From positions 1,129,122 through 1,193,121 of the forward strand of contig MU004233.1 of the NCBI GenBank assembly GCA_010405405.1: a stretch of 64,000 nt of DNA, written 5' to 3'. Positions within the stretch are counted from its first letter, which is position 1, and each line of letters starts with the position of its first letter. This document shows positions 13,501-57,953 of this stretch, in pieces. The notes beneath the pieces were generated by a model, which saw only the letters and a program-made list of their open reading frames with translations, was not told the DNA's origin and ran no database searches. The position numbers were made by a program, and so were the translations under genes. This stretch comes from Microthyrium microscopicum (Eukaryota).

Positions 13501-16500
13501 TGGAGAAAAATGTCCCAAGAGGCAATCACAACTTTGGCGTTTTGTAAAGCTTCGATCGAGCAGGCCTCAAGTTCATCAACACTATTGATCAGAATGATGT
13601 TATTGTTTCGAGGCTTTGGTGCTTTGCTTTTGGCTCCTTTACCAGCAGGTTGGTAATGAAGTCCAGACCCTACGGACATGAACTTGTTGAACTCGTCTGC
13701 CCATTGACGAGCTAGATGGCCAGGTACAAGAATGAGAGTCGCGGCCGTCTTGAGTAAGTCCGTCTTCTCCGTTGGGAATTGATCGGTGATCCATTTGGCA
13801 GAGTTTAGCCTATTCCGCCTTTCTGCTTCCTCGAAGTCGGAGCTAATCAGTGCAATGCTGACAGCAGTTTTGCCAAAAGAAGGAGGATCCGCTAGAATAC
13901 CACCTTTGACTAGAACATTGTACTGAGCTCTCACATCGAGCTTCAGGCCGATGTCCCTCAGCCAAGCCTCTTCAACTTCCTGGCAGGTGAAATGGCAGCC
14001 GCCAAGGAGTTCGCGTTTCTTCATCCACGAAAGAGCTCGTAATTGGTCTGCACGTAGCTTACAATTTCCACCATTAGTCCAAAGGTTCGGTTCAGACGCC
14101 CTTGCTTCATTGTCGGTGTTTTTGAATACAAACTCATTGAACCTGAATCGAGCAGGCTCGATTACATGACTGAGGCGCCATTGGACTTTGTACGTGCTTG
14201 TATCGGTATCGTGATTAGAAGAACAGTTGGTAATAGCGCGGTGTATCATAGATTGAAGTCCAAAACTCACGCGTAGCTCTTCTGAGTCTTTAGAGATTCG
14301 ATGCAGCTTCGGGCGGTTCCGCATTGCCTTTTCAAGCTCGGTGCCTTTCATATGTAGCTTCATGCCGCCAGTGAAGTGGGCATCTTCACCGATGGGGACG
14401 CACATTCGGCAGACACGAGTTTCATAGTCGCCGAGTTCTATCCACTGCTGAGACGTGGTAAGCGAGAACGAGTTCTTGAGCAAGGCCAATTCTAGTAGCT
14501 TCATCTTTCGCGCATGTTCGAGATTACTGAAAGCCTCTGGGAGCTTCATTATCATCATTTCGTGCATCTCGTGGCAAGATGCCTCTGTAGTCAACAAGTT
14601 GCTGATTTGCTCACCTCCCAAAGTCAAGATTTGGAGACTGCAGCGCTCGAGGATAAGCTCAAACCGCTGTTCAGGCAAGATTGTCCTAGGAAAAACCACG
14701 GAAGAGTCAGACAAGGACTTGGACAACTCTGACGGCTGCCATACCCTCCACTTCGGAGATACTTTGGCTATGATGCGCCGCGGTTCGGACTTTTTCAAAA
14801 TCGTGCACGAAGACGCAAAGACAAAGTGGTCGTTGGACGTGTGGTTGATAGGGTGCTGATCTAGAAACAGGTATACTTTCTGGCAATCTGTTTTGGATTC
14901 TTTGCAAAACAGGCTTTCTGTTGCCGTCCCACAATGTTCCAGATGCCTGTAGGTGCCTGAGATCATTGACATTCGGCTTACCACGTCTGGGGATGGTGGA
15001 TGATCCGGAGGTGCAGATACTTGAATCTTGAGCTTTGGAGGGCCTTGAATACTAACCAATCTAGGTACACCTAGCTTGGAGTGCCACCAAGGTTTGAGGT
15101 CGCCAATTGGCGTCAAAGTGATCGGGATCTCCGTTTCTTCGGAGCTATGAACGTTCCATTCTAACCTGTGCAAATCAAAAGGACAATGAATCAAGCTCGC
15201 TGAAGCGATGGGAACTTGCAAAATTTCTCTGGCCTTATCGCTCACACTCCAATCAGACTTCGGCAATAGTCGGATTTCCCAGGTAAAGGTATCTTTCGTT
15301 ATCGTAAGAGACAGTGTGGCATTACCGGTGTTCGAAAGCCAGGTGACTTTCCAGTGCGGATCTCGCATCACTGAATCAAAGTAGAAGTTCTGCTGCTTGA
15401 AGATTTCTGTTTCTAGCATTGATCGCAGGTCCTTCAAATTGCAACCCTTGTAGCAGTCTTTCAATACGGCGGTGGTGCTTTTGGAGGTCCTCAGCGAAAT
15501 TACTGGTGGTATATGTGGTGCGAGCAAATACAAGAAGGTTGTGGGAAAGCCCCTCTCTACCGGTTGACGACGATCAAACACATGTTCAATATTGCCTTCA
15601 CAGTCTGCACAGATTGTATGATCGCACTCAGCACAGCGATAGATCGGGCTCGGGGCTAGCCCGTTGTAGCCATCGCATAGACACTTCTTGTCAGAAATGT
15701 CGCCGTGTTTCTTGATTCGATCCGATAGATTTGCGGTTGGTCGCGAAGTTTCTACTTCGACTATATGTCCACCACGCATGGGCTTGATCTGATCGTGGAC
15801 CTGCTTTGGTAGATCGGGTGGCCGGCCGTTCCTGATGCTATTGTTTGGAAGACAGGTCTTTAGAGCACTAAGGATAACCGCGCCAACCACTGGACAAGTC
15901 ATGGCATTTCCAGCCATATCGCTCAAGTTTGTGTCAGACAAATTGGTCAAACGGAGTCCATCGGTTGTTATGCCTTGCAATCGAAGAGCCTCGAATCCAG
16001 TGATCATACGTCTCTGGTCAGACGCCCATGGTGTACCTTTAGGAGTAATACAGCCGGTAATCCCTCCAAAGGGTATGGTGGTCCCACCACGCTCCACGCT
16101 TTGGCTAATGTTATACACCAAAGCCTTGTAGGAATCGTCACCTTCCGTGTCCTTGGCCATGGTAAGATGTCTCGCCGACAGCAGATCCTTTTCGCGGGTA
16201 GGCCTTGAGAAAAAGCTTGCTGATGCATATTCAGGCTTGCGTCGTAAAAACGGAGATTTGATCCCGAGTTCATTGATAAGCCGCCAAACAGCGTGGCGTG
16301 ATCTATTTCTCTCCCATCCTTTGGAAGAAACTTTCTTCTCGGCATAATAGGATGCCAGAGCATTGGAGGCTGCCACTATCTCATCTGATGTAGCAAGAAA
16401 ATCAGAGACTGGAGAACTGGCAGGTCGCTGTAAAGCCTTGACTACTGCCGTGAAGGAGCTTCTCCAGTTATCACCCAATTGATCTTGGTCGAACTTCTTC

Positions 16501-17705
16501 ATACACAGAGCCAACATATAGGTTCGTTGTCGAGTCTGCGGTAGACCAAAATCCTTTGAATCCACGTCGATCTTCTGGGTTTCGTAACCAATGCCCCTGA
16601 AGTTGTCTTCGAAATCTCTCCAAACATCTGGATTCCTCACATTCTCCAAAATCACAATTGCAGGTTGCAGTACAAAGCAGTAATTTGTGACAGCATTAAA
16701 CGTCGTTGAAGACTCACCCAATTTTCGCTGGTTCAGGCTCTTGATCGTGCTTTTGTTGAGGCCGGAAAGGTCTTTACAAGAAGATCCGGCAATCAATATG
16801 TCAACATGAGGCCATTCAATCTCCTTCCCAAAACAGGTAGTGCTATACATAACTGTTAGCAAGCTATAAGGGCTAGAATCTGGAATCCCACTCACCCGAA
16901 AATTGTCTCATTTCTGCATTGCTGATCGGTTACATCCCTCATCAGCACCTTTGGTTTGAAGTTTGCTTGTATGTATGCCGCCTTGAAAGGCTCAATTTCA
17001 GCAGAAAACTCATGCACATATCGGATGTTGGATTGGCGGCATATCTCTTTCAAAGCGATAATCGGACTTTCTGTTCCGCTACACATTGTCCCAATTTTGA
17101 GGCAAGTTTCTGCTAAAACATCCTTCTTGAAGGATCCAAACTCTTTCATCTCTATGGCTCTTCCAACCAGGTCCACCAGAATTGACTTCGGGTCTGAGAG
17201 AGGAGGCAAATCTAAACGCAATTTGATTTTGGAAGGATCAGGGGCAGAATCATCAGAGAATCGTTGATCGTCGTTAGTGGGCGAGGTCTAGATCTCTATT
17301 AGCGAATCGGCATCAAAATATATTAAGGTCAAGATAGAGATGAAGTCATTGACGCCAGTACACTCATAGAATGTAGTATGTTGAGGGTACAAATTGGCCA
17401 GGCACAATATCTTTATATGCTTGCGACTGGCAGAGAGGTTTTCAATTTCGAGTGCGAGTGGGAAAGGTTGTACATACAATCTCATGATTCGACATGGAAG
17501 AATTACGGGCGGTAACCGAAGGCTGAGCTTTCTTTCCAGTTGAAGAAGATGCTCGAGTAGCGGTCCCACCACCAGTATGAACAGCTTGGCCTGAACTGTA
17601 GTTGGAACTTGATGGTCGAAACATAGAGTCCAGATCGGCAGTTTGCGAAACTTCGATAGGATATTCTTTCTTTCGTTCCTTTTTCGAACGTTCGCGACCA
17701 GACAT
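10527..17705 (-). CDS. DNMT5: DNMT5-type C5 DNA methyltransferase fused to RING finger and SNF2 ATPase (~2300 aa)
   Basis: MTase motifs TMCSGTESP (I), SAEIEPFK (II), AGSSCKDLS (IV), ILENV (VI), PQTRQR (VIII), AGNAM (X). SNF2 motifs GGILADPPSFGKT, LIVDEF, LLSGTP, GSNLT, QAIGRVVRTGQ. RING CTSC...CGHIICPHC...CPARGC. Intron 16843-16895 plus probable 5' introns; start at 17705 is tentative. Confidence 0.88.
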
Positions 17706-40409: not shown

Positions 40410-42121
40410 TTAGAATTCCATCGCGTCCTCCTCGCGCTCGCGCTTCACGATCTTCTCTTCCTTGAGAAGACCGGCCACGAAACCACGGAAGTATTCAACG
40501 TATGGCTTGAGCGTTGTCTTCTCCCAGTCTGGCATCTTCTTCTGTGCCTCCGTTTCTCCTTCCGGATGGTCTTTGTGCCACTGGTCAATCTCGGCCAGGA
40601 GATCTAGGACCGTGGGCACTGCGAATGGATCAAAGTCCTCTAGTGCTCGTACGTCAATCGGTACGCAGACTCGTCCTGTGCCAGGATGGACACAGAATGG
40701 GCTCTTGAGCAAATGGTTGAGTTTCTTGGACACTTCGGCATCGAGTCGTGGGTACGTGTACTCCAAGACAATATCTTGCTTCGCTTCCAGAAGAGCTTTT
40801 GTGTCCAAGTTTTTGCTTACGCCGGATGAGGCGAGGCTGTCGATATCTGCCCACTTGTTTGAACTAGATCGTCCTGGCGCGGAGTCCCATTTCTGCCGTA
40901 AGGCGTCGGCGAGTGGCTTGTCTGGAATTAGTTGGAGTAGATCCGCGGCCTTTTCATCTGTTTCCCATGGATCTTGATTGATTAGAACATCGGCTTGAAA
41001 GTGATCTCGCAGAACACGTAAACTTCGGCTGTGCATAAGTTAGTAGCTGATCTCATTGTATACCAGGCAACTCACTCTAGATGTGGATGCAACGGTCTCC
41101 GCGCGTTGACTTTCTTTCCACTCTTATCACCACCCTTGAGCAACTCCAGATATCCCGCAATCGCCCTCCTCCTGTGATCGTCCAGCTCTCGCGCCCGGCG
41201 GTCACATACCCATGCGTGAGCACCTCTTCGTCCAGAGTACACCCATAACACGTGCTTGAATCCGAAATCATCCTTGAGTGCTACATCCACCACCTTCACA
41301 GCCATGGTGATAAACTGCCAGCATTTGGAGCAAATTTTGGCACCAGAACAGCATGTGCGAATTGGATCGTAGTCAGTCATGTCGATATCGAAGACGAGTT
41401 CTTTAGATACGGGCTTGAACATGGTTGATTTGCGGAGGGTTTTGCGATCGCGTGGGTTGGAGGAGTAGACGGGTCCAATCTCGAATCGAGAGGGTACGAG
41501 TTGGACGCATTGTTTCTTGAGGCTGGTGGAGATATTAGCGTATGAAAAGGGCATGAGCGTGATATCTTACAGGTCTGCGGATGGGAAGGATTGGTATCGT
41601 AGGTATGCGTCATTGGGAAGCGTGAATGCAAACTCGCGGAAGCCAAAATCCTTGGTCGGTGTAGGATGATGGCTGAGCCAATGGCAAAGGTACCGGAAAG
41701 GGAAGAGACGTTGGTAGAAGGCACGCATTACTTCAGGATCGGTAGCTTTCGCCTCGTGTATGGATATTTCGTTGATTCCATTGTCGATTGGTAGGCTGGA
41801 TAGCATATCATCGTCGCTGTCTTCATCATCAAACATCTCTTCCAGTTTTGTCTTTGGCTTCTCATCGGTCTTTGTTTCGAGCTTGTGCTGCGCTTTGATT
41901 TCGTCTTTTGCGTGGGGAATGGCTAGGCTAGACATCATTTCGTCGTCACTGTCGTCGTCAAACATGTCTTCCATGTTTGCTTGGTGGTTCTCTTTATCTG
42001 AGCTTTCGGAGGGAACATCGCCAACTGCGAATGCTGGTGGACTTGATGGTTGAGCGGTTGATTGTGTCTCGGTGACATCCTCCATGATTGCATCTTCAGA
42101 CAAAAGAACACCGGGTGCCAT
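40410..42121 (-). CDS. PRI1: DNA primase small (catalytic) subunit; 3 exons
   Basis: FYQRLFPF, REFAFTL, PSRFEIGPVY, KELVFDIDMTDY, YSGRRGAHAW and HLLKSPFCVHPGTGRVCVP. Confidence 0.96.
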
Positions 42122-42212
42122 GTTTGCGGATCAGTCAAATTGTTGCGTTCAAGAAAGTCGATATGTTTCTTGGTGTACAAGTCAAGACTGGAGGTTCGAG
42201 GATGAACTTTAG

Positions 42213-42546: not shown

Positions 42547-43687
42547 ATGATGCCCAAGTCTCATAGTGGAGACGGCTACATCAGCGACGAGTCTGACTTC
42601 TTCGGTTTGTAGCTCTTCATCAGGCTGGTCCAATGCTGCGACTAACGCAGCCCTATAGGAGACGATAATCAAAAGCACGAGGCTGAAAACATAGCCAATG
42701 CTTTTTCCAAGATCGATTTCCATCAACAATGGTCTTTTCTACAAAGGAGTGTCACCGCAAAGGCCTACACCGCTACCCAGCTACTGGACCCTGTGGTGTC
42801 GCGGCCATCCACTCCAGTGCCCAAAGGACCGCGCATTAATCCCTACGAAGGCCAGGAAGATGCCTGGCAACTCCATGAGACCGCAGATGAATTTCTGGAA
42901 CGTGTTCCTCCCTTGAACAATCAATACCTCGACTGGCTTTGGGTCGCCAATCCTTACGCAAAAAAAGCCGATAAGTTCGGAGACGAAGGAGGGAATCGAG
43001 ACCATCCACAATTCATGAAGCGTGGAATAGAGCTTTTAGAAGACTTCAAGGAACGAAAAGCTCGGAAAGAGAGACCTCGCCCAGACGATCTCAAGAAGGC
43101 GATTCTGGAACTAGCGACGGAGAATGGGATCACGAATGGAAAAGTACCTCGCGCCTGTTGAACCCGCGAGCTCTCACGTTGCTAATCATTTCAGTGGCTG
43201 CTATTTGTCACAACCGACTATGTCAACACTGTCTGGAGAACGGTCGTGAAGGCCACAATTGAAGACCGTCTGGGAAACGGAGCAAAGATTGCTGCACAGG
43301 ATAAAGCAACAGGCGGTCCACGAGTTATCTGCATCTATACCAACGATTTCAACGACCGAGAAGACATCAGACGCGTTGTCAAAGAGCTCAGGGAGCTCAA
43401 ATGCCTGCACAAGGATGAGAAACAATCAGTACGTAGTACCCAATATCCACGCTCTGTCTGCTGAACCGTGACTAATTAATTAGATCTGGTACAAATGCGA
43501 CGCCTATACCTACTTATCGATTATGAGCGGCAATGAGTATGGCTTGAAAGCCAGTCTCTATGGAAGTGCCGACATCCTCACAAATCGGGATCTCGTAGTT
43601 AAACCAGTCGACAAGGGAAAGAGAAAAGCATCACAGGCGTCACTGGGGAAGTTCTTCAGCCCTGAGCGGAAGCGCCGAGCAGCTTAG
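42547..43687 (+). CDS. DUF1917 / BLES03 (C11orf68)-like protein; 4 exons
   Basis: DGYISDESDFFG, AWQLHETADEFLERVPP, WLWVANP, ITNGK|WLLF, ICIYTNDF and IWYKCDAYTYL. Confidence 0.82.
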
Positions 43688-43848
43688 TCTTAAGGCTGAG
43701 TATCATTTTGACAGTCTGGAGGCATTGTGCAGTTTTATATCCAGTATTTCTGTTCTATACCCCATGTAGCCATGTTTTATATGAATTTCTGACTTTATTC
43801 AATTACAGTTCTATCCAGACTCGACCGATCTTGACTTGTCTGTGAGGA

Positions 43849-44193
43849 CTAACTGCTTTCAGTGCCGGTCTGCTGTCCTTTCTTGAGCTCTTGCTCAATA
43901 TTTTTTACCTCCGCCGAGAGAAGTCTCATGTGGTTGGACACAATTTCTGTTAGCTGGGAAGCACAAATCTCATCGGATAGTGTAGGTTTGGCACGCATCA
44001 TCTCCATAAAGGTTTTGCCGTGTTTCATGACCTCCCGATAGGCACTATGAAGTGGCATCGAGGATATCAATTCCTCAAGCAACATCTGCGTCAGTGGAGA
44101 ATCCTCGGGCAGATCCATATCCTTCCAGTCACTTTCCTTCTTAGACAGGTGAGAGAATATGAACTTGCTAAAGAGCTTGTGCACTCGATCGAC
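43849..44193 (-). pseudogene. Array copy a: C-terminal fragment (or short gene) of the orphan family
   Basis: VDRVHKLFSKFIFSHLSKKESDWKDMDLP aligns with VQRVHKRFGDFAAASLSKVEERWNTMNVP of copy b. It is preceded by a splice acceptor (GTTAAC...TTCCAG); no N-terminal family exon is recognisable. Confidence 0.55.
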
Positions 44194-44968
44194 CTGGAAT
44201 TTGTTAACATGAAATCACGATTGGAGCTAACACCACGAAAACACCCATCGGATTCGGTGGAATCCATAGCATTCGATTAAGAACGCATTCTATGGTAGCC
44301 ATTGAGTTGGATCTTTCGCGAAAATTCTTGCGAACTGTTCGACCTGGCGAAGCTTCTCCAACGCAGGAGATGTAGCGACTGTGGACGATATTGTACGACG
44401 CGGTGGAATGGATTCGTTGGTGAGAAAGGACGGTTATGCTAGAGTGAGAGGTGAAACACGGCGGGCTAGGCAGCAGACTGATCAGGTGGGGAATCCAGCT
44501 CAGAAACAATAGTGCAACTGATTTCGGAGATCTGAGGGGCTCAAGAGTGCTCAAAAATATACTGAGCTGGAAGATCGTGTAGATGGGAGTCAACTGAAAG
44601 TACAAAAAGGACGCTTGTCCATCGAGGAACTGCCAGCCACAACCTATTGTTTGAATGTGCTAAGTTGGCTGATTGCATACTATCATGAATCGAAAACATG
44701 GCCCGTGGTAATTAAATCGTCCGATAAAAGCCTTTGTTGAATGGTAATGGCTGCAGTGAACGGGAGCATACCGATTATCATCCGTCGCAACGCAGTGATC
44801 ATTTGCTCCATAGCCCACTAACTGTATAAAGCCTATCTACCGGACTGCCCAGATACCAACGGTCTGCCTTCGAAGCAGATGAGAACGTGTTGAGTGATAT
44901 CCAACAGTCGAGCTCCGTAACTCTCTCATTACTTCGCCTTGAATCCAATACCCAGTGTCTTCCCAGAT

Positions 44969-46180
44969 TCAACACTGCTTGTTCTTGGCCTCAATAGCCT
45001 CCTCCTTGTCTCGCTGTTCCTCAAGTCTTTGGGCTTCTTCCCACAAAAGAATCACGTTATTCTGTGCAAACTTCGGCAGAATCAATGCTAGAGATTGCTC
45101 CTCTATCTCACGATACTTGTGCAGAAGCTCCAGACAGTCGCCGCTGTTAGCCGTATGAGCTTGATAATTCCGTGGTGTCCAGCTCTTCATATATGCAAGT
45201 AGTATTCCCATGTACGGGTGACTCATGGGTACATTCATTGTGTTCCAGCGTTCTTCAACCTTTGACAAAGATGCGGCAGCGAAATCCCCGAAGCGTTTGT
45301 GTACGCGCTGAACTTTGTTCATCATGATTCTGTGCGCAGCGGCCTTCCAGTTGTTTATAGCCTGCTGCTTATGGGCTTCATCTGCTCCTTTCCAAGCACT
45401 TCCCAGGTCATCGAGGGCGGCTTCCTTGGTCAGCTGGTATTCCTGATAATGAGCTATCAATCGGCATATGGAAATGACATGGTTGGTGAGTGTAGCGTTC
45501 AAGAAAATCCGGGTAATCTGAGCCTCTATTGAGTTTCCGGTGACCAAAGAAATGACGTCTGGCATGCGACATAACTTCATGACTGCTACTACCCACTTCC
45601 ACCGTTCAGTATCGGAAGGGAAGTCTCTATCTTGGCGAGATAAGGCGTTGGTATCTACCCATTTCAGAATGAGTATCTTAAAATCCTGCCAGTCGAAGTG
45701 CTCACTTCCAATTCCTCGGGTTCGCAAGAGATATGCCATTGTTTCGATAGAAGTGGAGAGGTCTATTCCCATCGTTTCGAAATCTGGCCATAGCTTCTGG
45801 AAAGATAATCAGCATCAGCATTGTTTTCCGGTATGTTCTATTGGCAAATGGCAGTAAGCTGTGTCTCTCACAGCCTTTAGCAACCTTCATGATCCATGCA
45901 GTATGCGGCTATGCCGTCTATTTTGACGGCTATTGGCCAACAAGCAGCGTCTTACCTTCGTCTCTGCAGTCGCCTCTCGCACGTTGAAACTATCTCCCTC
46001 GAAGATTTTCTTCAGTTCGGTAGATGGTTGCGTTGATTGAGGAATGAGAGCTGAAAACAACGGAAGCCTGAAAAGAATGGAATTGAGCTTGTTCTGGTCA
46101 GGATCATTGGCGCAATACTTCGACAGTCTTTCGAGTTCACGGATTTTGTCTAGTGGAGAGTTGGATTCCTCATCCGACAT
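44969..46180 (-). CDS. Array copy b: orphan family protein, apparently intact
   Basis: Exon 1 MSDEESNSPLDKIRELERL...FNVREATAETK; intron 45797-45955 (GTAAGA...CAG); exon 2 KLWPDFETMGIDLSTSI...ILKWVD. Confidence 0.75.
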
Positions 46181-46854
46181 TGTTCTGAGCAGCAAACGGA
46201 TTCTGGTACGTTCGAGCAGTGCAAATGTTTTGAGTAAATAAGAATCGATGACCGGGGAACGACCAGGTAGATATAGAGCTGGAGTTGACAAGGTAGATTA
46301 CTCTAGTGTTATTGCCTAGCCCAGCATCTGAATTGTTGGAAGGTCAACCTTTTATAGCAATAGGAAAGGCTTCGGAAGGGTAGCATGATCGATTTGAATT
46401 CTGACACAAAGGCACAACACCGGATAGATACTCCTGATTCACTTTATTTGCCCAGCTTGCATACACCAACTACTTCGACGACCTGATCTCATTCCCAAGT
46501 GACAGGGGACGCTTCAGATCGATTTTCGCGGTCTGGTTTCTTACAAATTGAACACACCGCCGACATTCCAGATTCCATACTCAACTATCACCTGCCTTCT
46601 CCTGCAGGTCCTGAGCGTGACATCCACGGCTCGAATGATTACGATGTAATGGAGACTCGTATGTCTTACACAATTTGGCAATGTGCACGAAGGACTGTTT
46701 ATCATTTGCTCATAGTTCCAGCACACAAGGCTGTTAAATATCTTCTACAACAATCAAGATTTGCGAAGAACCAATCATTCCAAGTTGGAAGATGGTGTCT
46801 GGTGCAATATCTCAACGTTTGACTTCACATTGGTATGATGAAATTTCCAGTCCT

Positions 46855-48008
46855 TCAAGTGCCTTTTTTGTATTCGTTTCCGGTAGCGTCATTCGAACCC
46901 GTGTTGCCATGTTGATCTTTCGGTTGCTTCTCAAATCGCTGATTGTTTGCTATCCGTTGCTTTTGTCTCTTCCCATCTTCCCATAGAGCGAACATGTTTT
47001 CCAGGGCGATGTCCGTCAACTTCGACTTATAGATCTTATTCCATTTCTGCTCATAGAGACGCAGAAATTCTGCACAGCTCTTGCCGGCGGTCAACTCATT
47101 TGAAAAGGTTGCCAGCATACTGAGCGCAGCGCTTTCAATCATTGACCCCGATTCTATGGCCATCGCGTTCCAACCTATGCTTAACTGGGTTACACTTTGT
47201 TTTTGATGCAAGGTGAAGCGGTCGTGTATTTCGAAGGTCTTTGTCTGCATCAAGTCAAGTGTAGCCAACTTCCAGTCATCCAAAACCCTTCCTTCGCTCT
47301 TTTCATCCGCTTTTTGCCAAGCAGTCATCAATCTATCAATGGTAGAGTCTTTGTTGTCTTGATATGGCTGCCGATGGGCTAGAGCTCTGCATGAAAAAAC
47401 AATAATCTCGTGGCGGAATACTTGGTAGACCCATCGCTCGGCTTGGACTACCTTTGAGTGACTATCTTCCAGGGGATTGTCCTCAGGAGGTATGGTAGTA
47501 CAATGTGCGATCTCTACTGCGTACTCCCAGCGCCAGCAATCAGAATGAAAGTCGCCTTGAAGGCGAGAGATTAGATCACAGTCGATCCACTTGAGAGTCA
47601 GTACTCTGGCCGATTCCAAGATTAGCTCCCTGCTACCAAACCCTTGCTCGATTGCGAATTTGGCCATCGAAGCAATTGACTTAGACAACTCAGCTCTCGG
47701 TAAACTGAGATCTGGCCAAAGTTTCTAAGGCTAAAATTTAGTTTATCTCATGATCGAACAAGGTCGTTATGATATACTTTGATCTCGTCGGTTGCCTTCT
47801 CCAGGTCAAAGCTATCTTTTTCTAAAGCCTTTCGAAGCTCTGGCCATGACTCTGTTGATTTCAACTCAGGTAGAGATTTGAACTCATAGATGCTGCGAAC
47901 CACGTTACTCAGTCTGTCTGAGCTCAAATCGCTCATGAGCTCCCTGATATAACGCTCTAGCTCATGAAGCTTCTTCAAGGCGGGAGACTCGAGGACAACA
48001 GAAGCCAT
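46855..48008 (-). CDS. Array copy c: orphan family protein, apparently intact
   Basis: Exon 1 MASVVLESPALKKLHELERY...FDLEKATDEIK; intron 47725-47777; exon 2 KLWPDLSLPRAELSKSIASM...TLKWID. Confidence 0.78.
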
Positions 48009-48809
48009 TACAGTGAGCTGCGGTATGTTTTCCAAGCGAGCTTAGTATCCGAGCTGCGGGTTAGGAAGAATGCCGGCTGAAAACGAAAGAGCAGGACAAG
48101 TAGGTAGTTCAAACGGCGTCAAAAAGTTGACTGAGTATTATTCAGACGTAGTGAAAAGATCGACTCCAGCTATGAATACGGAAGATGAGGCATAGCACAA
48201 TAGGTACCTACTTATTTGACACATTTCCATGACCCGGCAGGTATGTTTGTCACGATTTGCCATGAAAGTAATATACAACAGCTGACAATTTCTGTATGAG
48301 AAATTTGACACTCAACAATGAACCTGTTCCGCGGCCAGATCCACCCTTTTTGTCGCTCATTTGATATTGAGATGATCATCAGCTCAAACACGGCTCAAAT
48401 TATCGGCGCGACTCCAATGGGCTGGGAAGTCTAAGTCATGCTTTGCTCTTGGTATAGTTCCGATCTGGCCTCGACTTGTGGAACTCCGCCAGATGTCCAG
48501 ATACAGGAGAGTGAAGAAACACGATCTCCTTCCGAATTACAGTTGGATGATGGCAAACAAAATGCACCGTATTTCATGGGCATTTTCTAGAAAAGGCCAG
48601 AGTGCTGAGTTACTAAACTTGACTGTGCTTATAGCTGAATACCTCGCTGCGAGACACATTCACTGCCTTCTCCGATTCCCTCTTTGATGTTTTTGATCCG
48701 AACGTTTTCTGACACTTTCTAAGGTTGTCATAATAGCTTGCTCCTATCCCGTGCGCACTCCGATTCCATGGAGGGTCACCTGCCGCCAACCGCTAAAAAG
48801 TGTTGCATG

Positions 48810-50207
48810 CTAGTGTTCATCCTTAACATCACTGGTCAAAATCTCATCCTCCTCAAGACCATCCTCTTCGCCTTCATCTTCACTATCGCTAGGATAGTAA
48901 CGAGTGGAATATTCTCCTTCCTCCTCTTTCAATTCCTTCTTCACTTGCCCTTTCGCCTTCTTCGCCGCCTTCTCGAATAGCACGAGGTAGTCGTAGCATT
49001 GATATCGAACTTGTTCATTCCAGTGCTCCTGATTCTCCTTAGTTGCAGAACGGAAATACTCAACGAAGTTCTTGCTATCATCTGAGCCTGATGCTAGCTT
49101 TGTTGGTGAGAAACGCTTTTGGGCAGCAAGCTGATTCTTGAGAACCTCATCTGGAATATTCAACTTCTTCCAGTGGGCTTCAAACTTGCCCTTGAAAAAG
49201 CGATTGAATGACTCGAATCGGTTGTTGATTCAAAGCACTTCATCTTATAGCTTTCTATTCATGCTCGCTGACCTTGTCGAGAAGATATGTTTGCCGTCTG
49301 CGTAACATTTATCTTCCCAAACTTTCAGGAAATTCTGAACAGCCACATCTTTGAGGTCATGGTACACTTTGCGAATTGCAAGGAACCAGCTGATATTCAA
49401 AATCGGCAGGAAGATGGCAGCGAAAGCCTGAAGGCGCGACAATGGTTGGTCTCGACGTGAAGGGACCTGTAACATTGTCATTACAATTCTACCAAGGATT
49501 ATCAATAGAACGGCTGAGGCTAATAAAAACAAATGAAATTTCCTACGCGACATTACATGAATCGTGCTTCGCAGTAGGAGGTAACAGAGAACTGGCGGCC
49601 ACAAGAAGGTATGGTATCGCAAGATATTCTTATACGATTGCAACTTACCTTGTGTCCGTGGCACAATTGGACAATAGCATGGACATATTCCATGCGCTTG
49701 TCCGCCGATGGAAAGTCACCCGCTTCGCGACGCAAGACATCAAGGTCGACCTATTTCAGGATGGCCAGTTTGAAGTTTCGCCAAGTGGACGTGAACTTCA
49801 GGAACTCCTCTTCGTGTAAGGCGCGAACAAGTGAGGCAATGGACGTCGACAATCTAGCACCCAAGACTTTGAGCTCTGGCCAGAGTTTCTACTGGAGATC
49901 AGAAAAAGAATGTAAGGTGCGCAAGATGAACATAACACCATACCTCAGCCTCAGTGCTTGCCTTCTCCAGGTTGAAGTCAGAAGAACGAAGTTACATCTT
50001 GTTCAGTTCTTTAGATGGCACTTTGGCATTGTTGATCAGAGCGTCAATCTTGGGAAGCTTTTCATAGATGACGGTAAGCTTTTCGATGGTTGGACTCACG
50101 CCGGAATCATCCACCAGAATTTCGACCTCGTGGATTCCACCGAGTGCAGTGGACACAACGACAGGATTCGAAGGCTCACCGATCGATACTTCAGAGGGAA
50201 AATTTAT
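48810..50207 (-). pseudogene. Array copy d: disabled orphan family gene
   Basis: ATA at 50205-50207 sits where copy e has ATG. In-frame stops at 49992 (TAA), 49751 (TAG in conserved ILK[W]VD), 49245 (TAA) and 49230 (TGA). Intron 49889-49943, probable extra intron ~49467-49648. Exon 2 begins KLWPELKVLGARLSTSIASL. Confidence 0.8.
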
Positions 50208-50761
50208 CGTAGACGGGGGACGGTAAGCTGTCAGGGAAATTGAAGATTCGGAAAGGTGGAGGATAATTTTGGAGAAGAGCTGGAGGAGCAAACAGCGAAG
50301 ATCCCTAAGCAGATGTATCAAACAGGCAGGAAGTGCTTCAGAATCTGGGGAGCTTACGTTAAATGGAATGATCACTGTATGCCTCTAAAACTGGGAGATG
50401 GAAGAGTCGGGAGCGCAGTCATCGGTGGAACGATAGACCACCAGCATATCCCAATCGTGGGACGAAAGACGTTCGACTTGACCAATTACGGAGACACGTA
50501 CTTAGAGAGCGCAAGAATGCGTGCTAAGACTTAAAGCTACCCAGGTTGAGGGAGATAGAACATCAAATTAAGGAAATGTATTTCATTTGTACATCTCTTT
50601 CTAAGCCACTACACGCCTCTGCAAACTCGTTCAGAACCCTTTTTTTTGTCTACATCTGCACCTTCTCTGTCCCCTCTCATATCTCGCCGATTCACTTCTC
50701 TGCCGGTTGGCCCTTGATACTTCAAGATAACCAGGTCAATATCCAAGAAGAATGATCTCGA

Positions 50762-52155
50762 TCATTCATTCTCTTCTGTGTCACTGCGAACAATCTCGTC
50801 ATCCTCGCCGCCGCGGACGCTCTCATCATCTTCATCTGTCTGATCCTGCTCAGTCTGCGCTCCAGCGTTTCCCGTGTCTTTGCTCGTCGTCATCTGCTCG
50901 TTCGCCAGTTTTGTTTCGAGCTCTTTCATATCTACAATCAAAAGACCCATGTTGCTATCCCGAACCTCTTCGACTTCGTCCACCCAACGCTTTTTGTGGA
51001 ACTTACCCAACTGGCGTACGAAGGTTACCAGGTCCTTGATACTGTTGGGGTCAACTCCCCAGTCGGCTGATGTGTCGGTGAGCTGTTTTCGTTCAATCAG
51101 AATCTCATCGAGAACCTTCTTGGAAACAGCTAAAGCCTTCAAGTCCGCTTCGAACTTTGGAACAGCATAGTTCAGATGAAATTCTTCAAACTTCTTGTTT
51201 AATGCTTTCATGTCTTTGGTCATCATGGTGCCTGTAGCGTATGCCCAAGCACGAAGAACTCCTTGCTTTTGCTTCTTTGCTTTCCAGGCCTGAGTGAAGT
51301 CCGCTCGGCCAAGACGTCTACTCGCATCGTAGACATTGCCAAAAGCAAGATATCTTAGTGCGGCAAGAGCCTCGACTTCAAACTCGTAGTCGTTGAACAG
51401 CTGGCGAACTTGACCTTTCTTGTTGGTGGCTTGAACGGGAGGCACAGGTAGTAACAAGAAAGTGTCAGCACATACGTACTCCATTCGATCGCGATCTGCT
51501 CTCTCACTGCCGCCGATTCCAGAGATGCAGTAGCTGTCCACCCATTTCAAGATGGTCAATTTGAAGCGATACCAGGTGAAAGTGTGCTTGAGGAGGGGTC
51601 GACAGCGAATGGCCTCATCGAGAGCAACAATAGCGTCGAACAGCTTGCCTTTCAAGACCTTAAGTTCAGGCCAGATGGTCTGGATTTCCAATGTCAGTAC
51701 AATAGCGTTCAATCAAGAAACTGAAGACCTACCTCAACTTCCTCGACTGCTTTGTACAAATCAAAGTCGGACCGGCGCAACATTTTGGTCAGTTCCCAAT
51801 CTTTGTCCCATTCCTCGTGATCTTGCAGGTCGTCCACAGCCGAGTCTATCGGTAGGGTGGAATTGATCCAAGCATCGATGCCGCCGTAATCACCTCTCAA
51901 GTGCATCTCAATCACTGCAGCAGGAACACCAGGATCGGAGTCGGGCAGAGCTGGTGAAGTCACGATGAGGTCTGGGCAGGCGTTGATGCAGACATTAAGC
52001 TCTCTAACTTTAAGCAAGATGGCAACGAGCGTCTCGGGAGCGAGGAAGTTGGTGAATTCCTTCGCGAGGTTCTCAATGACGTGAATTTTGTCAAGTGTGG
52101 TAGATGTAACGACAGTATACGGACGATCAACCGATGATTCAGGTAGGGGAGGCAT
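50762..52155 (-). CDS. Array copy e: orphan family protein (~447 aa), apparently intact
   Basis: Exon 1 MPPLPESSVDRP...WDKDWELTKMLRRSDFDLYKAVEEVE; intron 51680-51732; exon 2 TIWPELKVLKGKL...ILKWVDSYCISG. Acidic tail. Confidence 0.8.
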
Positions 52156-52770
52156 TGCTGTAAGCAAATGCTGCTAAGAGAGTGTAATGTCTGTGAAAAT
52201 TGGCTTTGTGGATGACTGAGAGATAAGAGTCAGGGCTGAAGGAAGAGGATTTGGAGAAATGTTTGAAGAGATGAGAGTGGAGAGCAAGTTGAGGGAACGA
52301 GGTTTTTCGGTGATCGAGTGCGCGTGTTGGAGCTAAGTCTAGAAGCTTCTTGAGCGTTCCGAATACATCTTAGAAGAAGCTGCCAAATAAGGTAGGTCTG
52401 TTGCCGGGACACCCTACCTTAAGTACCTACTTAGTTGCTTCTTCTGGTAGGTTGAGATTTGGATGCATTTGAGATCGGTCTCCATCCATACCAAGCTTTA
52501 GGCAGGAGCGACGAGGAATACAGTGGGCCTTTTAAGATTGGTCAAGATTGGATAGAATACGAGTATCAATACTGGGGACATACCGGATTTCATAAAGTGG
52601 CGGAAGCATAGGAGTCCATTCTCACTTCAGCCCTACAGTACCTGTATGGATATACATGTGTAATTGTGTTATTCACCATAACTGTCATAGACAAACAAAG
52701 CCCGCGTTCGATAAGTAGTAATGTTCAGCTATACGATGACTGAAAGTCGAAGTCGCTTCATCATCTCACA

Positions 52771-54004
52771 TCAATGATCGCAAGATCGACCCTCTTTTTC
52801 CGACAGAATGACCTTTGCCCAAACACCTTGTTCCATCTGATCGGTTTCGGAGATATCATTTGTTTCCAATCTCTGATCAATGTCTTGCAAGCGCTTTTTC
52901 TCTAGCGCCTGCTTCTCTGCTAGCATTTGTTCGACTAACTTCATATATCCCACCATGGTCCGTATCTGATCATCCGCAACTTGAGACACGTTATTCGGGA
53001 TCAAGCCTCTTCGGCCAGAATTGTACACATCGACAAACGTTAGCTGATTGCTCAATTCGGCCTTGGACAGTGAGCACTTCTCGAGATTGGTTTTGAAGTT
53101 CTGGGCAAAAGCATTTTCAACTGCGTTACACTTCTAGTGCAGTGCCTCCAGCTTTTTGGTGGTTTTCTGGCGCATAATCTTCTCCCAGACATGTCGATAG
53201 GACTTCTGGTCTGTCGCCTTCCTCCATTCATTTGCGAAGGTGTCGGCACCAGCAATCAGGTTGTCGTAGAATACGTCCCAGGAGGCGAGTTCTCTCCAGC
53301 ATTGGAGGATCCACTGTCCAAGTAGGTGATTATAGATCAACATCGCAACGTAGTTGCTGTTGTCTATCCGTACCTCGCCGACTGGCGCGTCCGCTAACAT
53401 CAACTGGCACACGCTGCGCACATATTTTAGTCGCTGGCTGGCAGCTTGCCACTTGTTGCCGACCCGAGAGCCATAGCAGATGTCCATCCATTTCAGTATA
53501 ACTAGTGATAGCTCGCGCCATGTGAGGTCCTCGGGTTCTTTTTTGATCGCGAAGCCCAGGGACTTGATAGCCTTGGGCAAGGCCTTTCCCAGGACTTTCA
53601 ATTCCGGCCACATCGTCTACAGACCAGGAGTCATTAAAAAGCTAGGATAAATCATAGCATCAGACACATACCTCCACTTCACCGGCTGCGTTCTCTGGGT
53701 CGAATTCGACCCGGTTTAGCATGTTGCTGAGCTCCGGGGTCCATTCATCGGTCTCTTTGCTAGGATCATACTGAGGAGAATCCTTTATAAATTTGCGTTC
53801 TTTCTCTGGATACAATCGAATTGAGCTACGGTGAAGACTGCGTATCTTACTAATGATGCCGATGACCAGTTCGACACTCGGATTGCGATATAGTTCTGCG
53901 ACGAGACGTTCGATTTCCTAAATCAATTTGAGGGTCGGAGACTCAAGGCGAGGCTTTGGCTTTGGCTTTGGCTTGTCAGCCAGTGTAGGGGGAGTCGGAG
54001 CCAT
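52771..54004 (-). pseudogene. Array copy f: orphan family gene with two in-frame TAG stops
   Basis: MAPTPP...LESPTLKLI*EIERL (TAG 53918-53920); FDPENAAGEVE, intron 53617-53671, then TMWPELKVLGKAL...ILKWMD; LEALH*KCNAV (TAG 53134-53136). The frame is otherwise open to 52771. Confidence 0.78.
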
Positions 54005-54612
54005 TAAGTAGCTTGATGAACTGATTTGGCAAAAGGCTTGGGGACTCCAGGGCTGTAGAAGATAAAGAGTATACCAACAAAAAGTCGGCAGGCACCTGGG
54101 TAGCGACTGACTGCCAACTGAGACGCTTCCACCACAGACGATGGCTCCCATCAGCGCTACCAAAGAAAGCTGCTATGTTTCCCGGCGCATTGAATAAAAG
54201 AGTGGCAATTCAAGACAGGCTTTGGGGAATAAAACACTCGATGATAAAACGTAGCCTACGGGAGGGAGCGAGTGTGATGGCAGCGGTCCATATGTTTTGC
54301 CAGTCCGTTGGGTCGCCAAATGGCTGCTCTTGGACTCTGTAATCATTCTCTCTGGGATGCTCCAAGATGTGCTATTTTAATGTGAAAGTGACTGACCAAT
54401 TCCCGTCGTTGGTGTTGGCTGCCAAAGAAGCAACACAGCAAAAGACGGCATGATTTTCATTGGATTCGATGCAGATTGCAAATCAGAACGCCGTTCACAT
54501 TGATGTTCCAAGACTAGGTGGTCCTATTATTCTTGATGACCATCCAGAATGATGATGATGATCCGATCAACAGCCACCTACTATCTCATTATGCTCGAGC
54601 TCTGCTACCACC

Positions 54613-55932
54613 CTAACTCTGATTTTCTTGCTCCTTTGCCTTTTCCTCAGCTGCCGATAGTTTAGAGTCAGCCTGTTCGACACACTGTGACACAATCCAG
54701 GTGGAAGTGTCACCAATACCCTTGAAGGATTCCTCTTCATCCTTTGCCATTTGTTGATCAAATCGACGCACAAAGATCACCCAATCTTTGACCATTGCAA
54801 GCGCGTCTCCCCATTCTGGTGTAGCTGATGCGTTGCTCTTCTGCATAGCCAGAACATCGCCCAAAACATTCTTGGAAATTGCCAAATGCTTGAGGTTTTC
54901 CGCGAACTATTTGATGAATGAGTCGTGAACCAGGTGCCATTTCTCGTAGTTTTTCTTGGTATCATCCTTGGGGCTCTCAGTTGCAGCAGATATGGTGAGC
55001 GCTTTGGCAGATGATTTGTGTTCTTTTGTTTGCCACAGATCGACAAACTGTTTCATGGCAGTCAGCTTGTGGCCATCGCAGAAATCGAGGTAATGCAGGG
55101 CTTGCACCGCCTTGAGGATCTGCGTATCGAACAAGTAGATATTGAAGAGATACAGTAGCTGGCCCATCTCATCGTTGCCTTCCTTGAGTGGTAGAGGAAG
55201 TAGCAAGTTGTGCAAGATCTCCACGTATTGAAGACGGCACGCGGGCTGTCCCAACGGACTTTCGATACCAGATATGCAAAAGCTATCAACCCACAACAAG
55301 AGGATGAGCTTACATCCCCGCCAGGTGAAATCATGGCGATCTGCGGAGGTATCTCGCAGAGCGCTAGACAAGGCAGCGATGGACTTGGTTAGATCTCCTT
55401 GCAGGACTTGAGTTCTGGCCAAATGATCTATACTCAGCAATTAGCACAGTGTACCCTGTGTTATAATGACTAGAAAACATACCTCGACTTCCACAACCGC
55501 CTGTTCCAAATCAAAGTTAGATTTGCGTACCATCTTAGTCAATTCCCAGTCCTTGTCCCAACCAAAGCGCTCCAGGTTGTCCTGAGAACCAGGCAGGACT
55601 GTCAAACCTGTTTGACCATTCTTAGCCCATGCATCCGCTCCCTCAAGATCCATATTGCGAAACATCTTGATCACTTCTGGTGTCATGTCTGGATCCTCAT
55701 TTAAGTTCGGGGTCTCTGTGGCGGAACGTAACGACTTGTTGGTAAGGTCTGGCAGATTTTTGATCAAGCTATTGAGTTCTGTGACCTTGGCCACTATGCC
55801 TTCGATATGTTTCGGGTCAGGCGCAACCTCGGAATTTTTCACAAGCTGGCCAATGTCGTGAATTATGTTTAACGCATTAGATGCAACGACAGGCTTTCGT
55901 GTCTCGGGCGACACCCGAGGAACGAGAGACAT
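54613..55932 (-). pseudogene. Array copy g: orphan family gene with a 1-nt deletion and an in-frame TAG
   Basis: Exon 1 ends WDKDWELTKMVRKSNFDLEQAVVEVE; intron 55428-55482. IIWPELK then shifts frame (~55407) to VLQGDLTKSIAAL...LWVDSFCISG. FIK*FAENLKHLAISK (TAG 54907-54909). Confidence 0.78.
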
Positions 55933-56749
55933 TGTTGAGGAACTAATGATCAGTCTGAGCTTTTGCGCACAGCTATGGTATTTTGGGAAGCGTTAACGCA
56001 GCAATTTGTAAAACAATAGAGCTTGGAAGCGACAGAGCAGTGCAGCGAGAGGGCCAAGTGGTGTGGCGCAGTGTGGTGGAAGAAGTAGAGTGATTTGAGA
56101 CTGGAAAGTTTTGGGGCAAAAGAATAGGTTGTCAGAGATGTCTGTGCTAAAAATGCGCGTAAGCGACTTGTTAGCGCGTAGTCGGATTGGAACTGGTCAG
56201 CACGTGCCTTACTTGATAATCTCGAGGTAGTAGGTGGTCGCTTGAGAGACTCAACGGCAGATCCAGGTAAAGCTCAGGTCGTCTTGCTCAAAATGACTAT
56301 GAACACTAGCGATAAATTACATCAAATTGAGCGATGTACCTCCTAGATTGCCTCACGTTAAGCTCCGCATACTCTGTCGACTATCATTAGGTGCGTTGAA
56401 CAGTTCCAGAGGTATTTACTCATTGTTCAGCGCTTGTCGCCTCATAACTGTGACTCTAGAATGTTGTTTCCATCGAAATCTACTCGCTGTTTTGTTCCTG
56501 GCCGCAACTTAATTGAAGCGGGAGCGATGATAAATCCAAATAATTGTCCTCAGCCTGATAGTGAATGGGATGGAGTTAGAGCAAGGCTGAAGAAGCGCGC
56601 GGCTAAACACACCCAGCTTCCGCGTCGTAATACCCAATCAGAGGCGTGGAGATCTATGTGAACTTTTTGAAGGAATTGATCAATTTCAACACCGCAGAAC
56701 TTCAATCTGCATATGCTTCGCCGCGCCGTGCGGTCTGTCTCAGTGCAAT

Positions 56750-57329
56750 ATGGCGAAAAAGGCTTTGACCTCCAATGTAATCGTCAAACTCATTGTTGGC
56801 GCCGGCCAGGCCTCACCTTCACCACCTGTTGGACCCGCGCTAGGAAGTAAAGGAGTAAAGAGCATGCTCTTTGTCAAAGTATGGCGATCAGCGAGCTTCC
56901 ACCTAGCAATACTGACGACCTGAGTAGGAGTTTAATGCGAGAACTGACAACTACATTACTGGAACTCCAATACCCGCTCGCATAACCGTTTACCCCGATC
57001 GCTCTTTTACCTTTGACATTCGAACACCACCAACCGCACATTTTCTCATGACACTAGCCGGGGCGAAAGAAGTTCGCGGTCGGATAAGGGGTGCAGGAAA
57101 TACTCGAGGACCGAAACAAGCAGAGGAGAAGAGAGCTCGATCGAACGTGAAAGCAGCGGCGAGTGGGAACTCAGCATTAACGGAGCTGGGAACGATCAGC
57201 TTGAAGCATGTGTATGAGATCGCAAAGATCAAGCAGAGCGAGTGGCGACTGAGCGCATTGAGTCTCAAAGGCCTCGTCAAGAGCATTGTATGGCAGGCTG
57301 GTAGCATGGGCATTACGGTTGTACCCTGA
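56750..57329 (+). CDS. MRPL19: Mitochondrial ribosomal protein uL11m; 2 exons
   Basis: [35 protein letters not shown]...[13 protein letters not shown]...[13 protein letters not shown]...AGSMGI. Confidence 0.93.
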
Positions 57330-57953
57330 TGAAATGGTGGGCATCTGGATCAGAGAGATAAAAGCATTATAAGGATACCCCGAAAGAGTTATCATCATGA
57401 CTCGGCGTTTGCCAGCATGGAGGCATGCCAATCTTGCAAAAGCATGACAAGGAGATATCCAACGGTCTATAAGCCGTATTCTGTATTATATCACAGTGTA
57501 TATAGGCGAATGACCGCCATTTGTAAACGTAAACAACCGGAGAACACAATCCAGTTCTCATTGTAGACTTCAGGCTCATGTTACCTCTCATTCAATGATA
57601 GAGTGCCATGCAGCCGTCTGATGATCGAGTATCAACATGATCATACCAGTATGCTTTGCCAACATTAACAATGTGACCACTACGATTTCTTTCTTTGACT
57701 CATTCAAACAGCCTAAATCGAAGGAATAGGCAATTTGCAAAACTTATATATTCTTGTTCAAGTCAAGGTATTCAATGTTGAGGCTCTGCAGTCGATTTCA
57801 AGAGGTGGCTTACATAATCCATCAGTCGGCAAATTCTCGGCAGCCAATGAGATGCGAGCACCACAATATTCACCCACAAAGAACCCTCTGCAACAACGTC
57901 GACTCCTTCAACCAAAATTTCCAAATCGCATCCCTCCACCAGTCGACACCAAA

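Follow-up and report, generated by a model that had tools for sequence, protein, structure and literature searches.

Fungal genomes commonly contain lineage-restricted tandem gene families that turn over by birth and death, and mostly these have never been explained. The question of what such a family is and how it has lasted is raised by a 64,000-nucleotide stretch of DNA from the leaf-litter fungus Microthyrium microscopicum (contig MU004233.1; this whole stretch is called the window below, and all positions are counted in it), in which an array of divergent genes occupies positions 43849-55932 on the minus strand, between a Bles03/DUF1917 gene on the left and a gene for mitochondrial ribosomal protein L11 (MRPL19) on the right. 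A sequence-only reading had described this array as a head-to-tail tandem family and had placed it among possible loci of genetic conflict. The tandem arrangement was borne out, with six two-exon copies and one internally deleted copy, and both flanking genes were confirmed by Pfam. It is rather probable that the array represents an old lineage-restricted family, found so far only in M. microscopicum, which has a dispensable, non-enzymatic binding or scaffold role and is subject to birth and death; the array is a well-documented candidate rather than a demonstrated system. Its copies, named a to g from left to right, are as follows.

43849..44214, minus strand: copy a, C-terminal remnant (121-codon open reading frame, stop at 43849-43851; corresponds to residues 236-339 of copy b)
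44293..44433, minus strand: copy a, N-terminal remnant, first helix of exon 1 (47 codons; positions 12-40 of the family profile hidden Markov model (HMM), E 0.002)
44972..46180, minus strand: copy b, intact, 350 amino acids (exon 1 46180-45956, intron 45955-45797 of 159 nt, exon 2 45796-44972, stop 44971-44969)
46858..48008, minus strand: copy c, intact, 366 amino acids (exon 1 48008-47778, intron 47777-47725 of 53 nt, exon 2 47724-46858)
48810..50228, minus strand: copy d, heavily decayed pseudogene (no ATG, four in-frame stops, at least one frameshift; intron 49943-49889)
50765..52155, minus strand: copy e, intact, 446 amino acids (exon 1 52155-51733, intron 51732-51680 of 53 nt, exon 2 51679-50765)
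52774..54004, minus strand: copy f, lightly damaged pseudogene (TAG stops 53920-53918 and 53136-53134, no frameshift; intron 53671-53617)
54616..55932, minus strand: copy g, transcribed pseudogene (exon 1 55932-55483 intact, intron 55482-55428)

Judged from sequence comparison, the copies form a single protein family, with similarity far beyond chance. The phase-0 GT..AG intron that had been predicted at a shared site was found at the same codon in all six full copies (b-g), with lengths of 159, 53, 55, 53, 55, and 55 nt in array order, and each of the six junctions consists of ...E/K, the GT...AG intron, and xxWP[DE]. On the minus strand of 43000-57000 the pattern ..WP[ED] occurs seven times; six of these occurrences are the exon-2 starts (45796, 47724, 49888, 51679, 53616, and 55427), and the seventh (47852) lies inside exon 1 of copy c. 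As had been expected of the spliced copies in spite of their divergence, pairwise BLASTP (database size set to 1e6) gave significant alignments between b and c (30% identity over 333 amino acids, E 1e-41), b and e (24%, E 8e-15), c and e (23%, E 2e-10), e and f (26%, E 2e-13), e and exon 1 of g (39%, E 2e-18), and a and b (27%, E 8e-7). Both tblastn and the family HMM, applied to the whole window, placed family members only on the minus strand of 43852-55992; no tblastn match outside the array fell below E 0.28, and among all six-frame pieces of at least 15 residues none outside the array fell below E 0.2 with the HMM. Conservation within the family is restricted: L13, I17, and L44 are the invariant columns among the six exon-2 sequences, the conserved positions are hydrophobic or aromatic (WP[DE], L..SI..L, ILKW.D, and R..Y), and the family alignment contains no conserved set of polar residues suggesting catalysis.

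Three of the seven copies are intact (b, c, and e) and four are decayed (a, d, f, and g), a mixture consistent with the birth and death proposed from the sequence, and the stops and frameshifts that separate intact b, c, and e from disabled d, f, and g could all be located. In copy d, the stops are at 49994-49992 (TAA), 49753-49751 (TAG, where the LKW motif would have its W), 49247-49245, and 49232-49230; in copy g, the frame shifts near 55405, directly after the codons for WPELK, a TAG stop follows at 54909-54907, and an open frame of 162 codons is left. Copy a is an internally deleted copy, the middle of the gene including the intron having gone between the two remnants. Its N-terminal remnant shares 37% identity with residues 1-29 of copy b (BLASTP, E 7e-5) and has no significant similarity to copy c (E 1.2); this seventh copy, first described as a fragment, thus comprises more than a C-terminal piece. 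The prediction that annotation would miss the family was wrong, as public "hypothetical proteins" exist for four of the seven copies: those of b (P0003), c (P0001), and e (P0002) are identical to the models given here, and P0004 (177 amino acids) is a truncated model of copy f that spans the interval between the two stops and makes use of the shared intron.

Transcription and splicing were seen for copies e and g. The evidence comes from sequencing run X5; its RNA tag was no more than a guess, but the run is read here as RNA, since the GT..AG introns of the two flanking genes are missing from its contigs. One X5 contig joins 50604-51679 to 51733-52254, which is copy e with exactly the predicted intron (51680-51732) removed, and another joins 54584-55427 to 55483-56146, which is copy g in spliced form with zero differences from the window. 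Because this RNA-like contig carries both the frameshift and the stop of copy g with no differing letters, the two lesions are real rather than errors of assembly. The contig of copy g also contains a further joint upstream of the coding region:

56147..56207, minus strand: probable GC..AG intron in the 5' untranslated region of copy g (joint 56146->56208, CT..GC on the plus strand, one contig)

Beyond 56208 the same contig runs for another 166 nt (to about 56373) toward the divergently oriented L11 gene. Copy g is probably still transcribed since its transcript contig comes within a few hundred bases of the highly expressed, divergent L11 gene, and a promoter region shared with L11 could be the reason for the continued transcription of this broken copy. 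Contig depths in X5 were 23 for e, 29 for g, 284 for Bles03, and 966 for L11, although contigs cannot rank expression, nor can they reveal alternative transcript starts. Over b, c, and d, X5 had no listed contig piece and a summed depth of 0-0.93, which is not evidence of silence, the exception being a piece of about 35 nt in copy d with loose ends on both sides. At the left end of the array, the Bles03 transcript contig (43484-44297 in this part, plus strand) overshoots the Bles03 reading frame by about 600 nt and reaches 44297, crossing the C-terminal remnant of copy a in antisense orientation.

Two short repeated elements were observed within the array. The Bles03 transcript contig ends at a repeat of about 65 bp (44238-44307), which is dispersed in the genome and lies exactly at the internal deletion junction of copy a. 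In the DNA run, several other contigs align to this repeat at 6-8 mismatches and are broken on either side of it, and the bin that holds it has a summed depth about 3x that of neighbouring bins; hairpin folding is possible, the repeat occurs only once in the window, and it has no Rfam or tRNA match. The other element, of about 39 bp, lies upstream of copy f (54210-54248) and occurs elsewhere too, being matched by contigs from three runs with loose ends on both sides.

The duplications that gave rise to the array are ancient. Similarity at the DNA level among the copies was confined to one 88-nt stretch of 75% identity between e and g, and protein identity among paralogues is 22-36%. In protein-guided codon alignments, third positions were identical at a frequency of 0.30-0.41 versus 0.51-0.60 for second positions, and NG86 estimates among paralogues ranged from 1.9 to not computable for synonymous divergence (dS) and from 0.62 to 0.92 for nonsynonymous divergence (dN), so that the ratio dN/dS is not estimable because dS is saturated; the fast evolution read from the sequence is no more than a possibility, as no orthologue was found from which a rate could be derived. 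Synonymous saturation, together with higher identity at second than at third positions, shows that the duplications are ancient and that the long-term pattern is one of coding sequence under constraint; despite the saturated synonymous sites, b, c, and e still have frames open over 350-446 codons. The earlier idea of local amplification has therefore to be divided: tandem duplication in place holds, whereas recent amplification does not, given the single 88-nt stretch and the saturation of synonymous sites.

Phylogenetic analysis separated (b,c) from (d,e,f,g) with a support of 99/99 and with terminal branches of 0.9-1.9 changes per site, the branching inside (d,e,f,g) lacking resolution. The two subfamilies form contiguous blocks along the array, a, b, and c having a short N-terminus and d, e, f, and g a long one (exon 1 comprises 75-77 codons in b and c versus 141-150 in e and g). 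To judge from their having no more than two lesions each, copies f and g seem to have been disabled late compared with the duplications themselves, and ordinary nonsense and frameshift mutation of redundant copies is the likely origin of the lesions.

The family is an orphan, with no homologue outside this locus in the databases searched. A word-indexed search of 5.8 billion proteins confirmed 2 of 6181 candidates, both of them the locus's own (c and e), and with exon 1 of e as the query 1 of 438 candidates was confirmed, namely itself. An exhaustive HMMER search of 1.84 billion representatives returned six proteins at E<=0.001, four of which were b, c, e, and f from this locus; the remaining two, long tandem-repeat proteins that aligned over 10 and 5 short stretches, were judged spurious on inspection. 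As to paralogues elsewhere in the genome, which were judged from protein libraries, all annotated family members in these libraries come from this locus. Pfam searches at E<=1 gave isolated chance-level rows only, and with 13 family pieces as queries, hmmscan at E<=10 gave seven Pfam families, each in a single member and none in more than one piece, although above E of about 0.1 most matches are removed by the filters of HMMER. PDB sequences, searched with a profile, gave 0 matches. The lack of a recognised domain, noted in the sequence-only reading, was in this way upheld. As the six-sequence alignment is too divergent for metagenome patterns, a narrower alignment was used for scanning metagenome contigs, which yielded 125 pattern matches and 0 confirmed relatives, and a feature-based search of the ESM Atlas had no usable match for e or c. 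Among 15 of the 22 papers that mention M. microscopicum, no title or opening of an abstract concerned this locus, and among the 12 listed titles on orphan, tandem, and conflict genes no fungal report of such a family turned up.

Structural modelling supports soluble, all-helical proteins, as had been proposed. With the paralogues as the sole alignment, AlphaFold2 predicted 13 helices for copy c (predicted local distance difference test (pLDDT) 81.5, predicted template modelling score (pTM) 0.80) and an all-helical structure for copy e (pLDDT 77.4, pTM 0.73). Single-sequence Atlas models of c and e were poor (pLDDT 0.39 and 0.33) compared with the confident AlphaFold2 models, so that the paralogue alignment carries real signal. 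In the predicted architecture, the N-terminal half is helical and is followed by a loop with prolines, by a long three-helix bundle on the C-terminal side, and by a charged tail that is disordered; the loop between the N-terminal half and the bundle reads IPPED in c and PVPPV in e and has single prolines in b, f, and g. Foldseek against the PDB gave no match at E<=0.001 for either model (best E 0.089, with a template modelling (TM) score of 0.18, and E 0.34), and the fold matches obtained were generic helical bundles only. Copies b, c, and e are hydrophilic, including their N-termini, with a highest 19-residue Kyte-Doolittle mean of 1.09-1.36, a grand average of hydropathy (GRAVY) of -0.39 to -0.58, and an isoelectric point of 4.8-6.0; hydropathy analysis of the three found no membrane segment and no signal-like N-terminus. 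A homodimer prediction for c gave no verdict (score 0.00, the alignment having been left unused by the predictor).

The setting of the array is an ordinary one among housekeeping genes. Its two neighbours are the following.

42646..43687, plus strand: left flank, Bles03 (formerly DUF1917) gene (PF08939, E 8e-17 and 3.5e-27)
56591..57329, plus strand: right flank, mitochondrial ribosomal protein L11 gene of the yeast MRPL19 type (PF03946, PF00298)

RNA-like contigs confirmed the Bles03 introns 43144-43194 and 43429-43483 and showed an L11 intron at 56879-56927. The remaining genes of the window are also of the housekeeping kind, encoding a DNA primase small subunit, an NFACT/Rqc2-type protein, a DEAH helicase, CwfJ, a Kelch protein, and a large SNF2 plus C5-methylase protein. 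Guanine plus cytosine content is 0.469 in the array versus 0.477 in the rest of the window. No signature of repeat-induced point mutation (RIP) was found, TpA/ApT being 0.61 and (CpA+TpG)/(ApC+GpT) 1.37 in the array, versus 0.67 and 1.27 in the rest of the window; as the dinucleotide ratios resemble each other, RIP was rejected as the source of the divergence and the stops. A DNA contig of run X4 covers 44269-55452 at a single depth of 876, and because the depth is one and the same across this interval the array is not a dispersed repeat. A transposon-encoded reading frame was likewise rejected, on the strength of the single-depth DNA contig, the lack of a Pfam match, the lack of inverted repeats of at least 25 nt in 43500-56500, and the origin of all library members from this locus. 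Scans of 43000-57500 for tRNA and Rfam families had no match, and no 7-9-mer was common to more upstream regions of the copies than in shuffled sequence, so a shared promoter motif was not seen. Runs X6 and X7, which are labelled as a different organism, contain scattered pieces of the locus at about 3x over 43000-57500; 15 of the 16 listed pieces have zero differing letters and the other has one, so that the same strain, present as a trace, is a likelier source than a relative, and the pieces carry no information on polymorphism.

Two other open frames of the window were also recorded. A single open frame of 2126 codons (10530-16907, minus strand) combines C-5 cytosine DNA methylase, SNF2, and helicase-C domains, the architecture of DNMT5-type maintenance methyltransferases. 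Another (41567-42130, minus strand), which immediately precedes the DNA primase small-subunit domain and shares its strand, is strongly acidic, contains a duplicated motif MFDD..SDD.M.SSL, and has no Pfam match.

According to the reading preferred here, the family would have grown in place by tandem duplication, and its proteins may act as non-enzymatic binding or scaffold proteins, probably protein-binding, a role suggested because only core-type hydrophobic and aromatic positions are conserved. Those positions alone would be held and the remaining sequence would be free to vary; the function would be dispensable copy by copy, with redundant copies lost by nonsense and frameshift mutation and with f and g disabled recently versus the age of the duplications. 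Several points weigh against this reading. The argument for a binding or scaffold role starts from the lack of catalytic motifs and from a helical fold of a generic kind, the fold searches barely covered the N-terminal half of the models, and the alignment comprises three intact and three to four damaged sequences, which makes conservation statistics thin. Moreover, the orphan status could reflect a lack of sequenced relatives rather than real restriction. Under a rather unlikely alternative, the array would be an offshoot of a widespread, known helical family with an ordinary cellular role, whose homology has eroded past detection by HMMER and fold searches. The paralogues themselves are at 22-30% identity, so that remoter relatives would be very hard to detect, and a paper on 101 Dothideomycetes genomes names the order Microthyriales and the genus Microthyrium, the available passages giving no genome count for the order (PMC7082219). 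However, the exhaustive profile search found the locus's own proteins only, no Pfam family occurred in more than one of the 13 pieces even at E<=10, and Foldseek had nothing at E<=0.001 with either model. It is far less probable again that the array is a dying relic in which even b, c, and e are functionless and their frames open by chance. Such a relic would accord with the four of seven copies already broken and with the scarcity of RNA-like pieces on b and c (none listed, summed depth 0-0.93, no evidence of silence), but it does not readily explain frames of 350-446 codons kept open over saturated synonymous sites, splice sites retained in six of six copies, correct splicing of the e transcript, or the confident fold that AlphaFold2 builds on the aligned paralogues, an outcome implying that constraint across the copies has been coherent.

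Genetic conflict, to which the sequence-only reading had pointed, is still to be considered, since a pseudogene fraction of four in seven and orphan status may be just as typical of killer or allorecognition families. The copies would then be single-gene killers and antidotes resembling the tdk genes, or determinants of allorecognition or cell death, that arise, diverge into incompatible variants, and decay once fixed or suppressed. The available passages of a paper on tdk describe soluble single-protein toxin-antidotes, with 49 of 93 tdk loci being pseudogenes and active paralogues sharing about 28-51% identity, and bipartite proteins with a PP motif in the linker (PMC12930445). Age and divergence are compatible with a driver, because the tdk family, as those passages present it, is itself old, divergent, and half-pseudogenised, demonstrating that soluble families of this kind can drive (PMC12930445). 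Divergent paralogues, decay of four in seven copies, the lack of a homologue outside the lineage, and soluble products of 350-446 amino acids with no known domain all fit, and the proline-containing loop (IPPED in c, PVPPV in e) bears a weak resemblance to the tdk PP linker. On the other hand, the C-terminal IPR013902/PF08593 domain by which tdk is defined, found in 0 of 832 Pezizomycotina species according to the passages available (PMC12930445), was present in 0 of the 13 family pieces at E<=10. Pfam revealed no known domain of killers, antidotes, or cell death and no HET, HeLo, NACHT, or kinase domain, and there is no membrane segment, unlike in wtf proteins; no copy is young or nearly identical to another, and nothing points to recent amplification; the locus is single and internal among housekeeping genes, neither subtelomeric nor transposon-associated; and the expression of e and g comes from an RNA-like run of no known growth stage, with no tie to the sexual stage. 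A conflict family is accordingly judged quite improbable, and a narrower version still more so, in which the array would be the first tdk-like selfish family of Pezizomycotina, made up of soluble killer/antidote or incompatibility genes with long persistence through mutually incompatible paralogues. If the latter were true, broken a, d, f, and g would be defeated or fixed drivers, intact b, c, and e would be current or recently active ones, and the helical fold would be a new toxin-antidote scaffold.

The array offers a clean case: its anatomy is resolved in full, the copies share an intron, intact and freshly broken copies adjoin, broken copy g is still transcribed and spliced, and a confidently predicted helical fold stands beside the lack of any informative structural match. 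A true binding or scaffold family would add an undescribed protein family, and a true driver or incompatibility system would extend soluble single-gene killers to filamentous ascomycetes.

Among known systems, the fungal HET/HeLo/NLR genes resemble the array in being lineage-specific and prone to pseudogenisation, and they are also polymorphic and often have helical N-terminal domains; membership was rejected, as no HET, HeLo(-like), or NACHT/NB-ARC match was found in Pfam (E up to 10), and no repeat domain or prion motif was present. The wtf genes of S. pombe are poison-antidote drivers, which encode multi-pass membrane proteins from two overlapping transcripts. Like the array, they are multi-copy, fast-diverging, and lineage-restricted, with many pseudogenes, but a membrane protein of the wtf type was rejected because b, c, and e have no hydrophobic segment (maximum Kyte-Doolittle mean 1.09-1.36). 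In structural terms, the nearest likeness would be to generic long three-helix bundles, such as spectrin repeats, ribosome recycling factor domain I, and designed bundles, at a Foldseek level short of E<=0.001. Membership of the tdk/Mug135 type fails on PF08593, which matched none of the family pieces. According to the available passages (PMC12930445), the tdk loci of Schizosaccharomyces lie scattered, with an enrichment toward chromosome ends, whereas all copies here sit in one internal tandem array. Even so, tdk and the array have in common soluble proteins of similar size, no enzymatic domain, divergent paralogues, about half of the copies as pseudogenes, and possibly a bipartite predicted architecture with a proline-containing linker.

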